Origin: a phage
Assembly (NCBI GenBank): GCA_026683435.1
Contig: GCA_026683435.1_4866.1
DNA length: 64,000 nt
Strand: one strand, 5' to 3'
The notes under the pieces were generated by a model. The model was not told the DNA's origin and ran no database searches. It saw nothing but the letters and a program-made list of their open reading frames with translations. This document shows positions 4,301 to 33,443 of the stretch, piece by piece. Within the stretch, counting starts at the first letter, position 1, and every line of letters starts with the position of its first letter. The position numbers and the translations under genes were made by a program.

Positions 4301-7300
4301 GGTCTGGCCAGTAAGATTGGCTTAGGCTTTAATAAGGTGGCTAAGCTACCGAAACGGTTCCTGGATTTCCTGTCACCGAAAGCAGGCAGCATCGTTGGTA
4401 AGATTAAGGACTGGCTGAACGAGATTCCGGAGGGTGAAGAAAAGACACGTCTCCAGAAAGCGTTCAACCGCGTAACGAGCTTACCGGGTAAAGTGCTCGG
4501 TTTTGCGAAACGTGGTGTCGACCGTCTGAAAGACATGATTACCGACAACCCACTGACGCGTTGGTGGAAAGGCCGTAAAGATGGTGGGGGTGGTGGTTTC
4601 AGTATCTTCTCATCAACCGGAAAGAAAACCAACCACATTCTTATCCGTATCTACAAACTGTTGAACCAACGTTTACCGGGTGATCCGGAAGACGAAAGTT
4701 GGACAGAAGAAATGGAGAAGGGTGTCGGTGGCGGTGGTAGTACGATCGGCCGTGCAGTTCGCGGGGCGTATAATCGTGCGAAATCGTCGTTGTCTGAACG
4801 TTTTGGTGGACGTTGGTCAAGAACAAAAGCGTTCTTTGGTCGTGGACGTGACCGCCTGCGTGGTTGGTTCAGTGGTTTCCGAGGCCGGGCTGGGGATATG
4901 CTCGATGGGTATCGTGGAGCACGACACGACATTGCTACACGTTACGAAGTTGAACGTCGGTTGGCTGGACGTGATGACGACGTTGCTGAGTTTTATCGCA
5001 GTCATTTGAACGCGAAAGGTGGCCTTTCTGGCCGTAAAGTCTACGGTGACGCGAAGGACGACCTTGAGACCGCGCGCGATGCAGCAGGTCGGGTTATCAA
5101 CAAAGGGAAGAACGCTGCCAAATCTGCAGGTGCAAGGTTATTCGAACGCTTGGACCGAATGATTGGCTTGCAAGAGATGTCATGGTTTAACACCATGCGC
5201 GAATCAGTATCCCGTGCAGGTGGTGACGATGGCATTATTCGTACCATGTTTGCGAAGTTCGGTAAACGTAACAAGCCACCTGAAAGTGATGAAAAACGCG
5301 ACTACCTTAACTTCTTCAAACGTTGGCGTGAGAAACGTAAGGAGAAGAAAGAGAAAGCGCAGGGCTCCAAAGGGAAATCTGGCGGTCTGTGGGATATGGT
5401 GAAAGGCTTACCTATCATCGGTCCCATCGTCAGTATCTTGGGAACTGTGGGTAATATACTCGGTTCTATCACGAAATGGGGTGTGTTAAAACCAGTAGGT
5501 CTTTTAGGTAAGGCTGCGTGGAATGTCGGTAAGTTCGCAGTAACCCGTTTGGCGGCACCCGCGGTGTCCGCTGTGGCAACTGCGGCATCTGCCGTCGTGA
5601 CAGCAGTGGGCTGGCCGGCAATTCTTATCGGTGGTGCGATCGCTGCGGCTGGTTACGCCGCGTACAGGATTGCAACGACTACCTATACCCAGTACCTGGA
5701 TAAGATGCGTTTAGCTCAGTACGGTTTCCGTGATTACGATAAGTGGTCGTCGGACGACGGGGCGAAAGCGCGTTACTTAGAAGACGCATTGCGTGAGTAT
5801 GTGTCTTACGCGGAAGATGGCCAAGCCAGTCTCCGCGGGCTAAGTGGAAAAGACGTTCAGAAGTTAGCTGAAGGGTTCGGTATTAACGTCGAGGAAAAAG
5901 GCGAGATGTTGGCCTTCCAAGCGTTTATGCTTCAGCGCTTTATTCCGATTTATCTCCGCTGGATTACGGCACTGAAGTCAATGCCGAACAGTATCCAGTT
6001 GGCTGACGTCGGCGATGCGAAGAAAGTATCGAAAGAGGACATGCTGACTCTCTTCAACAAAATGAAGATGACTAAGGATGCAAAAGCGTTCTCTTCGTTA
6101 ACTGACCCACGCAAAGTCAACCAAGGTTTCTTCTCGAAGGCTTGGGACGTCGTAACCTTTACACCGAAGGAGTTTTTGAGCGGTGAAGAGGTTATGGAAG
6201 TGCAGAATGAAGTCGAGCGTGCAATCAAGTCCAGAATGGACGATAAGAAAGCACGTAAGTACGGAATGGCACCGGCCGTGGAGGGGATTAAATCCGCTGG
6301 CGTTGATGAAGCTATCAACAAACTAGGACAGCTGGATAACGAACGTAACAAAAATCTGGCGAAGGTAGAAGGTTGGGAAGACGGAACAGAGCAGGTTCAG
6401 ATTCAGGTAGACTGGAATGCGGTGCTCGACCAGAAAGACATGAATGCGATGGAATCGGTGCGTTGGAAGACTTACGGCTTTACCACCATCGATAACGCCA
6501 CCCGCACTTTGATCACGGTATTCGAGAAGAACGTCATCAAAGACATTGACGTGAAAACCGCAAGCTACAAAGGAGATTGGAAGAAAGCAATCGCCTCGAT
6601 GGTTCCAGACGCTATCGGCACACCGAAAGAAGATCGTTTGAAACGGTGGTTCTTTGACCGTTTCTTACCGGTATTCATGACGTATTTGGTTGGGGTGAAG
6701 CGTTACCTGCCAACAGCCGATCCGCTGAACTTGAAACTGACCGGCGGCTACCTGTACGAAATCAGTCTGATGATGTCAACTGCCTACAGCTTGAAAGGTG
6801 GTATAAGACAGTCGGTGTGGGAAGTGAATATCAACCCATTAGGGGGTGAGGCTAACACGAACCCATCGTCTATCAAAGCCGAGCTGGAAACGCTGAAGCT
6901 GTTGTCAAAAGAAGCTGACCTTGCCGTGCGTAACATGATTAAAGCCATTAAAAATAATGGCAAGCGTGCACGCTGGAAGGATCGTAACAAGAACCGCAGT
7001 TCTCTGGAAGTTACCGATGAAGATGAAGAAGACTCGAACATCAGTTCGGGAGATTCTTTGTCATCTGACGGTGCTCGCGCCTCAGGCTACATTCCATCGG
7101 GTACGAGTGGTGGTGTGCCGGGTAACTTGGGTCAAGTCGTCGATGCGGTTGGTGGTGTGCGGAACTACGCTGCAATGACCACTGGTTCGTCTTCGATTAA
7201 CCTGAGTGATGTGAAAGACGGTGATTATAAGTCACTGGCTGAAAAATACCCGATAGAAATGTTGGGTAGAAAGGGTGCGTTGAACGTTCCGAATATCAAA

Positions 7301-26884: not shown

Positions 26885-26900
26885 AAAAAAATAAGCATTA

Positions 26901-26923
26901 CCCACTCCCATAAGGGGAGTGGG
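26901..26923. terminator. bidirectional intrinsic terminator
   Basis: hairpin cccactccc-ataa-ggggagtggg flanked by A-run and T-run. Confidence 0.75.
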
Positions 26924-26934
26924 TAGGCTTTATT

Positions 26935-27858
26935 TTATTTGCATTTAGAACCGTTGACAAATGTCGGCGGTATCCATTTCAAAATCTTTGTCCGATTCCC
27001 GTCACGTGGACCGAGCCAGTAAGTACGCCAGTGTGCACGACGCATATGCGCACATCTGCTACCTTGTGTTCTTTTCTCCGTATCAGTATCAAATTCTTCA
27101 AGATACTCGCTTTGTGCTTTTACGGTGGAGAGGACAGTCGGTTTAGATTTTGGTTCAATGTGGTAATTGGCGATACGTTTCTTTCCAGTTAATTGTCTCA
27201 GTTTGACGGGTGTAGGGTTGTGCGGGATCAGTGAGAATGTAAACATGGTAGCGCCGACAATGCGTAACGTTTTCTCATTGGCCGGCGTACCAGTTTCCGC
27301 CACACGCAAGGATACAAAGCCGTCACCCACGTCCACGATTTCAAAGGTTTCCCCCTCGATACGTTTTCCAAAAATCATCATTGTTAAACAATCTTTCCCT
27401 TTAAACATTCGCCGACCGAAAACGTAAGTCTTTTCTTGGATACCGATATCTTTAGCGCGATAGCACACTGAAAAGGAGACGGCCCAACCGGGAATCTTGT
27501 CTATCCAGCTGCGTGGTATCTCAGTGAGAACGTCGCCAAGTAGAACTTGTTCAAAAATATTAAGATCAAATTCCATTTGGATACCCCCGTATCGCCAGCC
27601 GTAGGCAAGAGACAGGAAGTCTGCGGTGCATTCTTCGGCGAAGCAGTTCTTTAGGAACGCCTCAATCGGTATAAAGTGCTGGCCTATCTCGCCACAATGG
27701 GCTATTGCGTATTGCTCGATGATGGCGGGATCTCCACTTCTGGATTTCACACGTTCGTCGATTTTAGTAAGACCGTTTAAGAAATTACTCGGGGATTCGC
27801 GCATACCGATTACATCTACATTTACCGATTCTGCCAAATCAAAAAGAAAGCTGTCCAT
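26935..27858 (-). CDS. hypothetical protein
   Basis: 307-aa ORF, RBS aaggag. Confidence 0.7.
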   Translation of the reverse strand: MDSFLFDLAESVNVDVIGMRESPSNFLNGLTKIDERVKSRSGDPAIIEQYAIAHCGEIGQHFIPIEAFLKNCFAEECTADFLSLAYGWRYGGIQMEFDLNIFEQVLLGDVLTEIPRSWIDKIPGWAVSFSVCYRAKDIGIQEKTYVFGRRMFKGKDCLTMMIFGKRIEGETFEIVDVGDGFVSLRVAETGTPANEKTLRIVGATMFTFSLIPHNPTPVKLRQLTGKKRIANYHIEPKSKPTVLSTVKAQSEYLEEFDTDTEKRTQGSRCAHMRRAHWRTYWLGPRDGNRTKILKWIPPTFVNGSKCK

Positions 27859-27898: not shown

Positions 27899-27922
27899 AC
27901 GGACACTCCGAAGAGTGTCCGT
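27899..27922 (-). terminator. intrinsic terminator (minus strand)
   Basis: hairpin acggacactc-cgaa-gagtgtccgt. Confidence 0.65.
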
Positions 27923-27926
27923 TTAA

Positions 27927-28469
27927 CTAGAATTTACTAATAGCGAGTGGCTGCATTGGCTCAATCACAATCAGTATTTCTTTCAGACGTGAAACGATAT
28001 GCTCCCAGACCTGCGCTTCGAGATGACGTAGCATAGTGGTGAACTCCTCCATATACATCTTTTTATACTCTTCGCGGTTGAGATTTTCCCACGCTTCTTT
28101 CAATGGGCCTGCTTCCGGTCCAGACATCTTAATCATCATTTCGATGTCCTTCATTTCATCAAAGGCTTTACCGACCTTATCAATAACCTCATCGGTCTTG
28201 AGTTCGAGTGAGAAGCGACCCATCTTAGACTGCAGGAAGCCGTCTTCAATGTCTTCGTCGTTGTATTCGAAACACGCAATACGTTGCGCGAGTTGATGAA
28301 CTTCATTTACCGCGATATTGACATACGCTGCAGAGATAAGCCCAGCGAGGTGCTGACGATCGATATTCTTCGGTATTAGATAGTCTTCACACTTACGCTT
28401 AAACTCGAACAACGCCGCTGGAAATATTTCACGAAATTCGTCATCGAGTAAGTCAATGAATATCTTCAT
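27927..28469 (-). CDS. hypothetical protein, tandem paralog family member 1
   Basis: 180-aa ORF; N-terminus MKIFIDLL. Confidence 0.7.
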   Translation of the reverse strand: MKIFIDLLDDEFREIFPAALFEFKRKCEDYLIPKNIDRQHLAGLISAAYVNIAVNEVHQLAQRIACFEYNDEDIEDGFLQSKMGRFSLELKTDEVIDKVGKAFDEMKDIEMMIKMSGPEAGPLKEAWENLNREEYKKMYMEEFTTMLRHLEAQVWEHIVSRLKEILIVIEPMQPLAISKF

Positions 28470-28479
28470 TCAACACCCT

Positions 28480-29049
28480 CTATAGTTGAAAACTGAAACG
28501 CAAATGGATTTCCCTTACCGTATCTACCACTTTCCGATAAACGTCTCCCATCACATCCCTCAAATCACGCTCAAGCAGATACACGATTTTCTCACACAGC
28601 TCGCTGCTAAAAGGATAACGTGTCACTGTATAACTGCCCGGATGTTTTTCGGCATGTTCGATGATTGCTTTATCACTAACGGCATACGCGGCAACACGCT
28701 TGCCGTCGTCACGATAGACTACATAAGCGATGTTGTCGAAAGACTCGACGTGGCGTCGAAAATTCGCTACCAAATCCGAAACATCATCGCGTTCAGTCAG
28801 CGAAGTTATTCTGCCAGCATAAACCCCATCGACCAGATCGGCATCAGTAATCTCAACCTGTAAAACGCGCTCCGTTAACGCAATCAAATCTTTCAAAAAG
28901 GGATTGAGCAGCAGCAACATGATGTGCTTTCGATGTTCTTCAGGCATGATACTCTCAAGCATGGCGTCGTAATCTCTGTTGAGAGTTTCGATGAGGCCTT
29001 TCCACATTTCCTCATGCCCAGGCGTGGTCAGATCAAGGTAGATTTTCAT
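28480..29049 (-). CDS. hypothetical protein, tandem paralog family member 2
   Basis: 189-aa ORF; N-terminus MKIYLDLT. Confidence 0.7.
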   Translation of the reverse strand: MKIYLDLTTPGHEEMWKGLIETLNRDYDAMLESIMPEEHRKHIMLLLLNPFLKDLIALTERVLQVEITDADLVDGVYAGRITSLTERDDVSDLVANFRRHVESFDNIAYVVYRDDGKRVAAYAVSDKAIIEHAEKHPGSYTVTRYPFSSELCEKIVYLLERDLRDVMGDVYRKVVDTVREIHLRFSFQL

Positions 29050-29585
29050 TCAATAACCTCCCCATATTTCTCGCCGAGGTACAACAGCTCACGGCGACAG
29101 ATAGCCAGCACTTTCATTTCCGCTTCACGATACAACTTGGTGATTTTGTCAATGATTGGCTGGTCAACGATATCAGACCATGTTACCGTGTCCGTAACGT
29201 TTGACGATTGTCCGTTAATGACCACAGCAACGTACGTCTCGCCGAGGTTCTCTTGATGTAACCCCGCCAGAGATTCACCGACCTTATCAAAGGCTTCACT
29301 CAACAAGTCGGTGATTTGGTCCGTCCCTTCTACCAGTTCAAAACGATGGGGATAGTTCAGAATGTTACGCAGCCGCGTGAACATACGTTCAATAAGCTGA
29401 TTTACCATATCCCCAGTGTCACAGATAGTCACATCTACACCCGAACCTATTTCGTCAGACAAACGATTTTCGTGGACGGCCAACGCATCGTGAAGTTCAA
29501 ATTCCACGTCACGTTTTAATCCTAACAGAATTTCATCTAGCTGACGTCTCGACTCCGACAGAGCGAAGTCAATTACGATTTGCAT
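29046..29585 (-). CDS. hypothetical protein, tandem paralog family member 3
   Basis: 179-aa ORF; N-terminus MQIVIDFA. Confidence 0.7.
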   Translation of the reverse strand: MQIVIDFALSESRRQLDEILLGLKRDVEFELHDALAVHENRLSDEIGSGVDVTICDTGDMVNQLIERMFTRLRNILNYPHRFELVEGTDQITDLLSEAFDKVGESLAGLHQENLGETYVAVVINGQSSNVTDTVTWSDIVDQPIIDKITKLYREAEMKVLAICRRELLYLGEKYGEVIE

Positions 29586-29595
29586 CTAATGCTCC

Positions 29596-30003
29596 TTAAA
29601 AGTTACTTAACTCGGGCTGCGTATACCAGTATCTGCACGCTACGAGATCCACAACGTTATATTTCAGTTGTCCACCGTGCTGTGACGTGTCTGCCAATTC
29701 ACGCGCAAGCTTGAACGCCAAGTCTCCACGGTTGTCGAGGATAAGCAACACAACACGTTGCACCTCATTAAAGATATCCAGTTCACGTAAACAACTGTAG
29801 CGGTCGCTAAGATGCTTAATAACGCCTTTATAAACATCTCCTGGTACAGCAGTGCCATTTTCTGCCGCGTGGAATGAAACAAGCACGATTTTAATTAAAA
29901 TCTCGACAACCATGGAGTATATCATTCCACGGTTGCCGTTAATTTCCACATGCTTTAGATACTCTTGCAAGTCCATCAATGACTCGCTATACACCTTTAA
30001 CAT
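29596..30003 (-). CDS. hypothetical protein
   Basis: ORF track 29596..30084; start moved to ATG 30003 (MLKVYSESL) to avoid 71-nt overlap. Confidence 0.5.
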   Translation of the reverse strand: MLKVYSESLMDLQEYLKHVEINGNRGMIYSMVVEILIKIVLVSFHAAENGTAVPGDVYKGVIKHLSDRYSCLRELDIFNEVQRVVLLILDNRGDLAFKLARELADTSQHGGQLKYNVVDLVACRYWYTQPELSNF

Positions 30004-30013
30004 ACCGCCCCCA

Positions 30014-30385
30014 TTAGCTGGTAGCTGGCCAAACCCCCGGCGATGGAATCGCATCGTATCCACGCCATTTCTTAATGGCAACAAGGCTAGTGCCTGGGGA
30101 GCCGTCTAAATCGAAACCGACGGTTGCAACCACATCAACTTCGGTTTCTAAGTTAGAGTGGCCGATCGGAGAGAGGTGGGAGAAGCTGACGACTTTACCG
30201 CCCTGGATGGCGGTATCTCGAACTATACGAGCCATCTGTCTTATTTCTTGAGAAACTGGGCCGCGTAGGGTGGTTACCCGCGACGATAACGTCAACCAGT
30301 TTTCGCTCTCGGGTGCGACTATGTACAGAATAGTCCCTTCTTTAAAGTATTGTTTAACCAGTGTTTCAAATTCGTCTTGCGTCAT
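30014..30385 (-). CDS. hypothetical protein
   Basis: 123-aa ORF. Confidence 0.5.
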   Translation of the reverse strand: MTQDEFETLVKQYFKEGTILYIVAPESENWLTLSSRVTTLRGPVSQEIRQMARIVRDTAIQGGKVVSFSHLSPIGHSNLETEVDVVATVGFDLDGSPGTSLVAIKKWRGYDAIPSPGVWPATS

Positions 30386-30398
30386 GTTAAATACTCCT

Positions 30399-31133
30399 TC
30401 AGTAGTTTAGTTTCTCAGAGACTTCTTTACGGATGCGACACATCACCACCATCGCACCATTCGGAATTTGGCTCACGCAGTTATCCGTGTAAAACTTACC
30501 TTCACAGAGATAAAAGTCCAGACACATGGCATCGGTCAGTTCGTGCCACAGTGTGCCGAAACCGTACTGCCAAGGGCCAGAATGAACGACATCGTAATCG
30601 CCTTCAGTTATGCCAAAAGCGGCAGTAGCGGAAGACCACAGTGTTGAGGAGGTGGTATAAGTGTCATACCAGTAACCGAGCAGACGATGGTTACGACGTA
30701 TCTCAGCTAACCGCTCGTACATTGGGATGAATACATCTTCCACCTGCGTGACAAAATCAGCCAGCATCAACTTTTCCGTGAACCACTCGATCCACGCAAA
30801 GATTTGTTCTTCAACGTCTTGTTGACTTAACCCCGTGGAAGTGATACCTTCTTCGTAGCTGTAACCTTCGTAGACGTCAACAACATTAATCTCTACATGT
30901 TCTAGCGTGAACAACCGTTCGGTGTTGATGCAGTCGTACATCTCTTGTAACCACGCAGTGAAGACTTCTATACAGACGTTGATGGCTGTATACTTGAACT
31001 CGTCACGCAGAGGATACCACTGTGGGTTATCCTTTAGTTCGTTCTTCGCGAACGCGGGCCAATGCTTTTCGAACAACGCTTCAAAGAACTGGGGCGTGAG
31101 GTTTAAAAGCACTGGCACTTCGACTTTAAGCAT
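30399..31133 (-). CDS. hypothetical protein
   Basis: 244-aa ORF, RBS aaggag. Confidence 0.7.
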   Translation of the reverse strand: MLKVEVPVLLNLTPQFFEALFEKHWPAFAKNELKDNPQWYPLRDEFKYTAINVCIEVFTAWLQEMYDCINTERLFTLEHVEINVVDVYEGYSYEEGITSTGLSQQDVEEQIFAWIEWFTEKLMLADFVTQVEDVFIPMYERLAEIRRNHRLLGYWYDTYTTSSTLWSSATAAFGITEGDYDVVHSGPWQYGFGTLWHELTDAMCLDFYLCEGKFYTDNCVSQIPNGAMVVMCRIRKEVSEKLNY

Positions 31134-31166
31134 CGTGAATAAATTCTCCTTAAGGTTACGTCCCTG

Positions 31167-31201
31167 TAGATAATATCTATCTCAGATTACTTTAAGAGAT
31201 G
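31167..31201. promoter_or_regulatory. conserved intergenic element, copy B
   Basis: TAGATAATATCTATCTCAGATTACTTTAAGAGATG; overlaps stop codon of upstream minus gene. Confidence 0.5.
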
Positions 31202-31927
31202 CAAGAAGCGTGCTGCCTGTTCTGTAAAGTGAAAATACTCGATGGTATCAGGTTCGTCCGAGTGAATGTCATCCGGGTCCAGCAGGTAGCCCGAGATATC
31301 ATCCGTTAAAACCCAAGCGTCTCCCTGCAGGAAAATACCCATCGGTTTTTCTACCACGGACATCACCAAGTCGGAATAAGAGTTACCTTCTGCTACCTTT
31401 ACAATGTCTTCACACGGGTCAACAATATACAGGTTGCAGAGACTACGATCTTTAAGACTGCGATGAAACATCGCTCGATCGTACCAAATAACCTGAGAAC
31501 AATTATCTTCGTCACCCGCCACATCGACCAACTCTGTCCAGAACCGATGTAAGAACCAGTTCAACGCACCGGTTATTAGCTCGTTCGGTTTCAGCATTCT
31601 AACGTGTTCGTCGTACAACTCTTCCATTGTCCAGATTCGACAATGCTCACGATCGATTGTCGGTAGCGGAGGTATTTGCGGCGGGACTTGTTTAGGCATC
31701 GGTTCATCACATCTTGCGTTGTAACGCGCAATTGTTTCGGTAACCAGCTCTGCCACAACATCACAAGCCGCTTCAAATCCCCACTTGTACAACACGTCGT
31801 AATCTTCCATGGGCGCAGCACCAAACTCACGGTTCGTTGCCATCCACGACATCCATCCGTATTGCTCCACACAGTTAATCAGACTTTGTGTGTGGAGCGT
31901 GAGCGATTCACTCACGACTCGCAACAT
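31187..31927 (-). CDS. hypothetical protein
   Basis: ORF track 31187..31987; start moved to ATG 31927 (MLRVVSESL) with RBS gaggtg. Confidence 0.65.
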   Translation of the reverse strand: MLRVVSESLTLHTQSLINCVEQYGWMSWMATNREFGAAPMEDYDVLYKWGFEAACDVVAELVTETIARYNARCDEPMPKQVPPQIPPLPTIDREHCRIWTMEELYDEHVRMLKPNELITGALNWFLHRFWTELVDVAGDEDNCSQVIWYDRAMFHRSLKDRSLCNLYIVDPCEDIVKVAEGNSYSDLVMSVVEKPMGIFLQGDAWVLTDDISGYLLDPDDIHSDEPDTIEYFHFTEQAARFLHLLK

Positions 31928-31928
31928 G

Positions 31929-33443
31929 TTACACCTCTTCTTCTCGCAGTATGCGACGGTTTGCGTAATACGCACACCACAACCCATGATACTCTTTACC
32001 GATATAGATTAAGAAGTAACGGATGTAGTATTTTTCAGGACGACACACCGCGATGTAATAACGGCCTTCGGGTTCTTTAATACGGTTGATTTCCGTACGA
32101 GACGGAATATCAATACCACGCGTCAAAATAACCGAGACAGGTCGTTTACCCATCGGAAAGTCAATCTTTAACGTTATTGACTTATCGACGCTACGGTAGT
32201 ATTCCTTAACAGGCTTACCTTTGTCATCGAACAACAAGTCAGTAATATCATTTAAGACATAACCCTTTTCCTGATGCAGAACATCACGCAACGTTGTAGC
32301 GAGTTCGTCACGAATATCCAGCGCACGGTACGACAATAAGGGCGGGCGAAGCATTCTGGAGATGGCCAGGTCTTCAAAGAACCAGACATTGGAATCTTCT
32401 CCACTGAAATGCATCTTGTCTGCCGGTAATCCATCACCTGCCACGTCAACGAACTTCTTACGTTTAACGAACTCATTGTTAACAACACCGATTGGATCAT
32501 ACTGCCGCATCTTCGGTGTATCTTTCCATGCCAGGGCGGCGTGGTTGTTTACAATCGTGTAGATGTTATCCCACGGTTGTTTAGTGAACATTACGGAAAA
32601 GTGTGCATCAGGAATCATTTTCCCAATAAACACCAAGTCGTCCTTGTTCTTTGCATGGTTGCCACCAAACATGTAATAGAAAGTTTCATCTTTCACTTTT
32701 ACAGTAGGATGGTCCTCGTTCACCAACGGATAGCAATATTTAACCGTACAAATCGGCGGATATGCCGCAAGGTTCATCCCAGCGGCGATGGGCTCGGGTT
32801 CCGCGGATGCAGGCAACTCATCCTTCGACCAGTACGGCTGATATGGAACGCCGTCGTTGGTCGCTGTGATGGCTGAACCTTTTCTAGCCAATTCGTCCGC
32901 CCGGTCGTTACCGTAGTGGCCGGAGTGTCCTTTGATTTTGATAACCTTAACACCCCGTCCTTCTTTTTTCATCTGCTGTTTGATTTCCCAGATACGAACA
33001 ATAAGTTCTTTGTTCGCCAGCGGAGTACCGTCAGCACGAACCCAACCGCGTTTATGCCAGCCGTCTATCCACTCGTTAAAAGTGTTTACAACGTAACTGG
33101 CATCCACGTAGATGATATAGTTCTTCGCGCGGAAGGGCGCGTTCTCAAACAACGTGATGAAGGCGATTAACTCGCCCACATCTGAGTAGAACTCTTTCGG
33201 AACGGGAATAACGGCGTCGACAAATTGAACGGTGTCCGGCAACTCCGGACACTTCACATCCTGCGGCACTTTTTTGTATCCAACAGTGGTAATCCGTTCT
33301 GAAACACCCGGATGGCTATAAGCCTGACTGTCTTCCAAATCTCCGTTGTTGAATAAATAACCATGAATACCAGCCCCCGAACCTTTCGGGGACTCAGTAT
33401 GACTACCATCGGTATAAATAACCGCTACGTCGACGTCTTTCAT
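31929..33443 (-). CDS. RNase HI domain fused to C-terminal domain of unknown function
   Basis: N-terminal ~190 aa carry RNase HI motifs: TDGS, ELIAF, YVDASY, WHKRGW, KGHSGHYGNDRADELA; C-terminal ~310 aa unassigned. Confidence 0.85.
   Translation of the reverse strand: MKDVDVAVIYTDGSHTESPKGSGAGIHGYLFNNGDLEDSQAYSHPGVSERITTVGYKKVPQDVKCPELPDTVQFVDAVIPVPKEFYSDVGELIAFITLFENAPFRAKNYIIYVDASYVVNTFNEWIDGWHKRGWVRADGTPLANKELIVRIWEIKQQMKKEGRGVKVIKIKGHSGHYGNDRADELARKGSAITATNDGVPYQPYWSKDELPASAEPEPIAAGMNLAAYPPICTVKYCYPLVNEDHPTVKVKDETFYYMFGGNHAKNKDDLVFIGKMIPDAHFSVMFTKQPWDNIYTIVNNHAALAWKDTPKMRQYDPIGVVNNEFVKRKKFVDVAGDGLPADKMHFSGEDSNVWFFEDLAISRMLRPPLLSYRALDIRDELATTLRDVLHQEKGYVLNDITDLLFDDKGKPVKEYYRSVDKSITLKIDFPMGKRPVSVILTRGIDIPSRTEINRIKEPEGRYYIAVCRPEKYYIRYFLIYIGKEYHGLWCAYYANRRILREEEV

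Follow-up and report, generated by a model that had tools for sequence, protein, structure and literature searches.

The window analysed here, 64,000 nucleotides (nt) of phage DNA (NCBI GenBank assembly GCA_026683435.1, contig GCA_026683435.1_4866.1), is from a Seoulvirus genome, i.e., from an SPN3US-like, nucleus-forming jumbo phage of the phiKZ-like kind. At positions 27927-29585 it carries a tandem array of three diverged genes on the minus strand, which we call C, B, and A from the head of the array onward. We favour, with some reserve, the reading that they form an ancient and diverged accessory array of one clade-restricted superfamily, whose middle copy was recently gained, or regained, by recombination. 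The paralogy is solid for A and B and probable for C. Gene B is a strain-specific extra gene, a singleton among the sequenced genomes searched. The array belongs to an ordinary kind of phage accessory multigene family and does not represent a new type of system.

The region is 97-98% identical to the Salmonella and Escherichia jumbo phages JN03, EC001, and Lh1B, and ~95-97% identical to SPN3US. The three genes are the following:

29046-29585, minus strand: gene C, 179 amino acids (aa), ortholog of SPN3US gp212 (phrog_8379), first and most conserved member of the array
28480-29049, minus strand: gene B, 189 aa, orphan member of the gp213 family, B-type or Machinavirus-type subclade
27927-28469, minus strand: gene A, 180 aa, ortholog of SPN3US gp213 (phrog_9806, A-type subclade)

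The list of open reading frames (ORFs) bears out the coordinates, lengths, and N-termini that a preliminary description of this DNA had given for the three genes. The short gaps or overlap it described are also there, since C and B overlap by 4 nt (ATGA) and B and A are 10 nt apart. Each gene is preceded, 8-12 nt upstream, by a Shine-Dalgarno-like GGAG or GAGG. A and C are 97%-identical orthologs of SPN3US gp213 and gp212, respectively.

The relationship between genes A and B

The pairwise BLASTP comparison of A and B gave E=6e-4 over 104 aa at 25% identity. Both proteins match the profile of phrog_9806, A with 1.7e-65 (residues 1-180 against columns 1-177 of 177) and B with 6.8e-17 (1-188 against 1-169 of 177). 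B compared with the gp213-family profile by hhalign reached a probability of 98.2% (E=4.5e-14, 165 columns), and the profiles of the A-type and B-type clades are clearly homologous (E=2.2e-19). In addition, both genes lie directly 3' of the gp212 homolog and on the same strand, as expected of the gp213 family. Judged by these sequence comparisons, A and B are homologous and fall in two deep subclades of one family, of which B is a full-length but very divergent member.

The identity of B to A is 16%, and to the proteins at the gp213 position of the Machinaviruses ChrisDB, SNU4, and Caitlin it is 24-27%. A neighbour-joining tree placed B inside the Machina/Wellington clade in 100% of 50 bootstraps. 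The profile of the B-type clade matched B over its full length (4.9e-12), and that of the A-type clade of Seoulvirus and Erskinevirus matched its N-terminal half only (2.2e-8). These comparisons indicate that B is not a recent duplicate of A and exclude a recent duplication of A in situ. We infer that A and B were separated by an old duplication, after which most Seoulviruses lost the B-type copy. The array as a whole would thus stem from ancient duplications and not from a simple local triplication.

The preliminary description had read the array as the product of gene duplication and divergence. This stands insofar as A and B are homologous, and fails as an account of a simple local event, the A/B split being ancient and B no recent copy. 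The pairwise and profile alignments it had proposed as a check came out differently for each pair: significant for A and B, marginal for A and C, and negative for B and C by BLASTP. It had also recognised no known family, which remains true of function, while both families are already present among the PHROGs as 9806 and 8379, with function unassigned.

Gene B as an extra gene and its origin

We found no close relative of gene B. A word-indexed search of 5.8e9 protein clusters returned only B itself, and an exhaustive HMMER search of 1.84e9 representatives gave no relative closer than 27% identity. B was not found in complete genomes of E. coli, in plasmids, or in IMG/VR, and it is in no other Seoulvirus genome of the phage collection nor among ~15 billion proteins. 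Searching the phage collection by tblastn yielded only four weak matches, all in Erwinia phages. The protein itself occurs on a 239-kb contig of a third-party annotation (TPA) record labelled Escherichia coli (OZS76_002498) and in the Logan assembly of run ERR6411844. The presence of a complete genome of a lytic jumbo phage within this bacterial isolate dataset points to a carrier state or to contamination.

The junctions of the extra gene can be identified. In JN03, EC001, SPN3US, SPAsTU, and pEa_SNUABM_29, C and A overlap by ATGA with nothing between them. Relative to JN03, the window has a 580-bp insertion (a gap in the megablast alignment), both flanks of which align to the same 24 nt of JN03. 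B is bracketed by an imperfect direct repeat of 79% identity and 580-nt spacing, with the perfect core TTGAATGAA on the coding strand (repeat family D2). The elements of this junction are:

28453-28480: right copy of the 28-nt imperfect direct repeat, overlapping the ribosome-binding site (RBS), a TGA, and the start of the A coding sequence
29033-29060: left copy of the 28-nt imperfect direct repeat, spanning the end of the C coding sequence, the ATGA overlap, and the start of that of B
29050-29124, minus strand: 3' end of C, unusually diverged from JN03, with 13 mismatches over 75 nt compared with ~1 per 40 nt further in

These differences include the C-terminal tail of C, which reads GEVIE in the window and GKPAE in relatives. 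At the 5' end of A, the mismatches to JN03 are mildly elevated.

We propose that a tract of ~0.6-0.7 kb, reaching from the 3' end of C through B into the 5' end of A, may have been acquired in a recombinational exchange with a Seoulvirus-like phage, so far unsampled, in which B persists. The conserved junction at the gene starts, RBS-TGA-ATG-AAR-AT, would have provided the short homology for the exchange, and the diverged 3' end of C (29050-29124) would be part of the tract that brought B. Import by recombination is the most economical history of B, with a presumed direction and donor. We prefer it because the genome in the window is nested among B-less genomes at 98% identity and because the mismatches are concentrated beside B. 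The GC content and codon usage of B are native-like, which fits a related donor.

Gene A has a peculiarity of its own in the comparison with SPN3US (27927-28469 against SPN3US 5000-5542). Its synonymous divergence (dS) is 0.44, several-fold above the 0.02-0.21 of its neighbours, and its mismatches are bunched at 27933-27965, which suggests that A has been exchanged among Seoulviruses in a mosaic fashion.

Gene C as a probable distant relative

Gene C matches phrog_8379 over its full length (6.3e-67, residues 1-176 against columns 1-176 of 180), and gp212 orthologs of it are present in 63 phage records. It has no match to phrog_9806, and an hmmsearch of the window ORFs with the family profile gave it E=0.51. 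The exhaustive search of the 1.84e9 representatives with a profile of A and B retrieved no member of the C family. C is hence classed as a distant relative within the superfamily and not as a member of the gp213 family. By BLASTP, A and C are similar with E=0.005, confined to an internal block of 22 aa, and B and C show no significant similarity.

The profiles of the A and C families align in hhalign over their first 37-38 columns with P=0.0026-0.006, Met1 being aligned to Met1. With two versions of the alignments, this score was reached in 0 of 150 column shuffles and in 0 of 150 block shuffles. For comparison, unrelated neighbouring families gave E-values of 0.02-0.8. The internal block that had been noticed in the preliminary description is real: it follows the motif R-h-x-h-x4-D-x-h-x-D, it is in register in a relaxed profile alignment (A LKTDEVIDKVGKAFDE, C EGTDQITDLLSEAFDK), and it forms a strand and a helix in the models of both A and C. 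Short DNA matches at the gene starts and in the internal block (repeat families D3 and D7) are collinear with this relaxed alignment. The N-terminal motif M[KRQ]-h-h-h-[DN]-h is found in 3 of the 152 ORFs of at least 80 aa in the window, which are exactly A, B, and C. It is also present in nearly all of the additional array genes that relatives carry and not in the neighbouring gp208-211 families.

We then have the structure predictions by AlphaFold2 (AF2), with a predicted local distance difference test (pLDDT) of 68 and a predicted template modelling score (pTM) of 0.66 for C, and values of 66 and 0.59 for A. Both models have a strand at residues 2-5, and in both the internal block is a beta-strand followed by a helix. 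A Foldseek search of BFVD with the model of C ranked gp212 orthologs first to third and array genes of Erwinia phages fourth to ninth, including gp213-type (A-family) proteins at ranks 5-6. Conversely, the model of A retrieved gp213-type proteins at ranks 1-3 and array genes at ranks 5-7, 11, and 12, with C-family (gp212-type) proteins at rank 4 (E=5.7e-3, prob 0.98), 7, and 12. BFVD entries were assigned by organism, length, and identity. This reciprocal ranking of predicted structures is the strongest argument for the relationship of C. Altogether, it is quite likely that C is homologous to A and B, a view that leans mainly on structure predictions of moderate confidence.

A patch of DNA shared by A and C was not counted as a signal of homology. 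Between 28167-28183 and 29274-29290, 16 of 17 nt are identical and encode the peptide DKVG. The patch is shifted by 21 nt (7 codons) relative to the protein alignment and adjoins an in-register match of 13/14 nt (peptide AFD). It is probably a coincidence of a shared tetrapeptide and codon bias. Other origins that might be considered are an old heptad-like internal repeat or a micro-conversion.

The array in related phages

The pair formed by C and A is conserved in all the relatives examined, which belong to Seoulvirus, Erskinevirus, Machinavirus, and Wellingtonvirus. In every one of them the C-type gene occurs once and opens the array. The island is variable, with 2-6 array genes per related phage. 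The genes are listed here from the gp212 homolog onward, and upstream homologs of the gp211 region are left out:

SPN3US, SPAsTU, SNU29: C, A
JN03: C, A, AcrVA2-like
ChrisDB: C, B-type, AcrVA2-like
Genome of the window: C, B, A, AcrVA2-like
Asesino: C, A-type, D, AcrVA2-like
Stratton: C, A-type, D
Huxley, SNU10, SNU43: C, B-type, E
Caitlin: C, B-type, F
SNU4: C, B-type, F, AcrVA2-like
Kwan, Wellington: five family-type genes and two upstream genes

The families F and E, at position 4 in Machinaviruses, match the A-type clade with 7.9e-9 and 1.5e-5, respectively, and the B-type clade with 2.5e-4 and 0.015. Being nearer the A-type clade, they imply that Machinaviruses carry the order C, B-type, A-type-like, which is that of the window. 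Ancient tandem duplications could have produced the ancestral order C, B-type gp213, A-type gp213, still present in the Machinaviruses of Erwinia. Later losses and gains specific to lineages would have led to the present 2 to ~6 copies, the other sequenced Seoulviruses having kept only C and A.

The gp213 family is restricted to this clade. Among the 1.84e9 representatives there were 11 hits with E<=1e-3, of which 9 are genuine and 2 (P0030 and P0031) apparently spurious. The phage phiKZ keeps the flanking core genes ORF152 (UvsX-like), ORF153 (virion protein), and ORF155 (RNase H). Its ORF154, the sole gene at the position, was rejected as a homolog of the array genes, to which it is unrelated. 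We also rejected gp209 as a member, in spite of an N-terminal likeness ('LNLTP..FEKHWP'), given a hhalign E-value of 0.16. The gp208, gp210, gp211, and Erwinia 'g0' families are unrelated to the array by profile comparison.

Some of these upstream genes may be related among themselves. The homologs of gp209 (30399-31133) and gp208 (31187-31987) are maybe paralogs (hhalign E=3e-4 over ~155 columns from residue 1). A common N-terminus, ML[KR]V.SE.L, in gp208, gp211, and Kwan gp236 may reveal a second diverged family in the island.

The GenBank records of SPFM phages (for example, LR535901, LR535903, LR535905-LR535908, LR535911-LR535913, and LR535917) are unfit for calls of presence or absence. 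Their region homologous to 27900-30400 of the window matches only in 18-22 short pieces, and the gp212 and gp213 they encode are truncated or frameshifted, with lengths of 142-175 aa and partial identity. These look like low-quality assemblies.

Genomic context and the AcrVA2/FinQ-like neighbour

Gene A is followed by a hairpin resembling a terminator, and further co-directional genes lie upstream of C:

27899-27922, minus strand: terminator-like hairpin with a 10-bp stem, a UUCG loop, and a T-run, 4 nt past the stop codon of gene A
29596-31987, minus strand: homologs of gp211, gp210, gp209, and gp208, upstream members of the island, co-directional and with short spacers
26935-27858, minus strand: AcrVA2/FinQ-like gene, 307 aa, part of the context of the array and not a paralog of its genes

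The hairpin has a folding free energy of -18.1 kcal/mol (z -5.33), and none of 200 shuffled sequences folds as well. It lies after the array and marks where the transcription unit stops. The array had been described as preceded by its own terminator, which has to be corrected accordingly in position: upstream of gene C we found neither a terminator nor an obvious promoter. A scan for sigma-70 promoters gave no more matches than in shuffled sequence, and is in any case inapplicable to transcription of the phiKZ type. The genes follow each other with short spacers or overlaps in the order nuclease, RNase H, gp208, gp209, gp210, gp211, array, and terminator. The array is translationally coupled and occupies the distal end of this co-directional string, which includes RNase H.

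The variable island is flanked by core phiKZ-like genes, namely RNase H (gp207, phiKZ ORF155) and the virion protein gp214 (phiKZ ORF153), and a gene for a UvsX-like recombinase lies 2 kb from the array. Of the genes of the island, only gp209 and gp212 have counterparts in phiEaH2 and CR5, and none has one in phiKZ (Thomas et al. 2016, Table S1, PMC5105663). The AcrVA2-like gene and the gp214 homolog converge on a perfect, bidirectional terminator-like palindrome at 26898-26926, which in SPN3US comes directly after gp213.

The 987-bp segment 26941-27927, with the AcrVA2-like gene and the hairpin after A, has no counterpart in SPN3US and corresponds to an indel. The gene is present in JN03, Asesino, ChrisDB, and SNU4, and absent from SPN3US, Stratton, Huxley, and Kwan. 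In JN03 (MT799840, 4036-4959, minus strand) there is an intact 307-aa ortholog at a place where the GenBank record has no coding sequence and shows a 1-kb gap. The 307-aa protein has a precomputed match to PF26125, for which our local copy of Pfam gave none. Its sole match in the PDB is AcrVA2 (7ci1), with E=1.9e-3 for the single sequence and 6.8e-5 for the family profile. The residues H271-x-R273-x-x-H276 are invariant in its family, and H286, R288, and H291 of AcrVA2 are C-terminal residues needed for activity (bioRxiv 10.1101/2022.11.29.518452). The sequence evidence thus assigns this gene to the AcrVA2/FinQ family, with an HxRxxH motif that matches the essential residues of AcrVA2. In PDB searches, the N-terminal, target-binding part of the protein has no detectable similarity to AcrVA2. 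AcrVA2 causes the translation-dependent destruction of Cas12a mRNA, and its homologs are found on plasmids and megaphages that mostly lack Cas12a, for which other targets have been proposed (same preprint). The interval is an accessory and possibly conflict-related island, in which the link between the AcrVA2-like gene and the array is positional only.

Selection and possible function of the array

Proteins of the array are ~160-210 aa long, and A, B, and C are soluble and acidic (isoelectric points of 4.5-5.2). The predicted fold, in the AF2 models of A and C, combines a beta-strand at the N-terminus with long bundled helices and a small beta-sheet. The list of SPN3US virion proteins identified by mass spectrometry skips gp204-gp213 and includes gp214 (PMC5105663, supplement). 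Among close relatives, the ratio of nonsynonymous to synonymous substitution rates (dN/dS) is 0.06-0.07 for C, and it is 0.03 for A against SPN3US. At this short range both genes are strongly constrained by purifying selection. At the distances that separate genera, the gp209-gp213 island diverges far faster than gp214, and identity to Asesino is 32% for A, 43% for C, and 79% for gp214.

Searches of Pfam, NCBIfam, PADLOC, and PDB sequences with A, B, and C returned nothing meaningful, and no PADLOC model matches these proteins or the 307-aa protein. Weak matches to DUF3802, DUF7874, and StiP (E ~0.05) were dismissed. We also discarded a reading of the hhhhD strand as that of a PIN- or Toprim-like nuclease: the models are a helical bundle with a small sheet, position 6 is often N, and there is no Pfam match. 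Acidic DNA mimics of the Ocr or ArdA kind are another poor fit, as A, B, and C do not combine the structural similarity and the extreme negative charge that mark such proteins. In the literature we found no study of SPN3US gp212 or gp213, the mentions of 'gp213' being concerned with other phages.

A, B, and C could be accessory proteins that act on targets of the host or of competing elements, for example, as defence or takeover factors. In that case the genes might be expressed together to form a complex in which C stays the same and the partner is one or other gp213-type copy. An accessory role of this kind in conflict or anti-defence, possibly through co-translated hetero-complexes, is our best guess at function and one we advance tentatively, as a possibility that falls short of being probable. 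The preliminary description had associated such arrays with host-takeover or anti-defence gene sets, with which the variable island and the adjoining AcrVA2/FinQ-like gene are compatible. The wider proposition is unlikely on present data. It would make the gp212/gp213 superfamily a new class of counter-defence or inter-element conflict proteins of enterobacterial nucleus-forming jumbo phages, arranged as a cassette array with a constant C, exchangeable target-specific subunits (A-type, B-type, and the additional Erwinia-phage copies), and cassettes that recombine at RBS-TGA-ATG-AAR-AT within an anti-defence island hosting the AcrVA2/FinQ-like gene. A homolog of the AcrVA2/FinQ-like neighbour has been reported to bind nascent N-terminal peptides. 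Even more speculatively, the N-terminal heptad of the array proteins might be recognised co-translationally by this neighbour.

Alternative explanations

The extra gene could have arisen or persisted without import. That it is a tandem duplicate of A or C, made recently in this lineage and then diverged very fast, is extremely improbable. Its tandem position, its similar length, the common N-terminus, and the direct repeat at the gene starts, spaced by 580 nt, would all fit such an event, but the flanks are ~98% identical to the B-less JN03 and EC001, and the divergence of B is too large for the age of the split from JN03. Beyond the junction repeat of ~24-28 nt it has no DNA similarity to A (16% identical as a protein), it is nearer the gp213-type proteins of Machinaviruses in BLAST, tree, and profiles, and its GC content and codon usage are ordinary. 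Less far-fetched, yet still improbable, is an ancestral B kept vertically only here and lost elsewhere through deletions from one repeated gene start to the next. Retention would agree with the order C, B-type, A-type, which Machinaviruses also have, with a 28-nt repeat that could mediate deletions, and with the native-like composition of B. It would nonetheless take at least 3-4 independent losses (in SNU29, SPAsTU, the SPN3US group, and the JN03/EC001 group), and it leaves unexplained why divergence is raised locally on either side of B, in the 3' end of C and at the 5' end of A.

Two further alternatives concern the unity of the array and its role. The array might be a gp213-type pair beside an unrelated gene C, with similarities that converged under constraints of translational coupling, from A-rich early codons, or through a common helical-bundle architecture. 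The lack of significant BLASTP similarity between B and C, the hhalign probability of only 6-11% over the 37-38 columns shared by the A and C families, the E-values of 0.5-0.75 that C and B obtain when family profiles are run by hmmsearch against the window ORFs, the A+B profile search that yielded no C-family member, and the low A-C TM-scores of medium-confidence models all speak for this. Against it, the hhalign score was unmatched in 300 shuffles and control families stayed at E-values of 0.02-0.8; the alignment begins at residue 1 in both proteins and the internal block is collinear; each model ranks the other family directly after its own orthologs in the whole BFVD library; and the N-terminal motif, unique to A, B, and C among the 152 ORFs, recurs in the extra array genes of relatives and not in the gp208-211 families. 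Convergence is an unlikely explanation, and we retain a probable homology of C. The main functional alternative, also rather unlikely if slightly less so, is that the array proteins are not conflict proteins and serve phage DNA metabolism in the nucleus, assisting replication, recombination, or repair, for example as mediators or regulators that work with RNase H, the nuclease, or the UvsX-like recombinase. Such a role is in line with the strand and short spacers shared with the endonuclease and RNase H genes without an internal terminator, with the recombinase gene 2 kb off, with strong purifying selection, and with the universal presence of C in the clade. It sits poorly with a copy number of 2-6 and a presence that differs among 98%-identical genomes, with a divergence much faster than that of core genes, and with phiKZ and other chimalliviruses that have the same core replication genes without the family at this position. 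Nor do the proteins have a nucleic-acid-binding or enzymatic signature.

Several observations weigh against the interpretation we favour, that of a single superfamily with a recently imported middle copy and a possible role in conflict. B is known from one sequencing run (ERR6411844), and its donor is hypothetical. The AF2 models of A and C have only moderate confidence, being built from shallow alignments of 5 sequences, and with pLDDT of 66-68 they give A-C TM-scores of 0.31-0.44. These low scores are the reason why we hold the homology of C as quite likely and not as settled: the structural check that had been suggested gave favourable reciprocal ranks and unfavourable superpositions. The Foldseek score, which combines structural-alphabet and amino-acid terms (3Di+AA), partly re-uses the sequence signal. 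A dN/dS far below 1 gives no short-range signature of an ongoing arms race. Guilt by association between the array and the AcrVA2-like gene is weak because this gene is absent from many array-bearing genomes and a terminator lies in between. Finally, co-transcription with RNase H and the nuclease, and the nearby UvsX, fit a role in DNA metabolism equally well.

Significance and comparison with known systems

These results join two PHROGs of uncharacterised function and several orphan genes of Erwinia phages in what is probably one clade-specific superfamily. They also provide a clean case, with junctions that can be identified, of recent gain of a singleton gene in a jumbo-phage genome that is otherwise 98% identical to its relatives. 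Between RNase H and gp214 lies what emerges as the accessory island of this phage group, including an AcrVA2/FinQ-like gene missed by some GenBank annotations. If the family does target host defences or rival elements, it would offer a way into the question of how nucleus-forming phages cope with threats in the cytoplasm.

The closest known families are those of SPN3US itself. Gene A is 97% identical to gp213 (PHROG 9806), B is a divergent full-length member, and both follow the gp212 homolog as in that family. The window differs in having B, of the Machina/Wellington subclade, beside an A-type gene, and no other Seoulvirus has two copies. C resembles the gp212 family (PHROG 8379) in its 97% identity and its single copy at the head of the array; unlike in the database, where PHROGs 8379 and 9806 are unlinked, a fold and an N-terminal motif are here tentatively shared between them on the basis of predicted models. 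Inner-body or ejection proteins of phiKZ-like phages also form diverged tandem paralog families in the same phage group (PMC5694885). They are, in contrast, virion proteins cut by the prohead protease, and gp212 and gp213 are absent from virion lists.

Anti-defence islands such as acr clusters share some traits with the locus: the array proteins are small, acidic, and uncharacterised, and they adjoin a variably present gene of the AcrVA2/FinQ family with H-x-R-x-x-H. The differences are that no array member matches a known anti-defence family, that no Aca-type regulator is present, that a terminator stands between the AcrVA2-like gene and the array, and that dN/dS is low.

Large lytic phages have plasticity regions with lineage-specific multigene families, for instance, the plasticity regions and internal-protein loci of T4-type phages. 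The protein family in the window is a different one, and its boundaries have no cassette of promoter and stem-loop, only microhomology at the RBS and start codon. With these regions the array shares small tandem genes of non-essential appearance between core genes, a variable copy number, fast divergence, and recombination at short conserved boundary sequences. There is hence nothing surprising in its kind, as lineage-specific paralog arrays are common in the plasticity regions of large phages.

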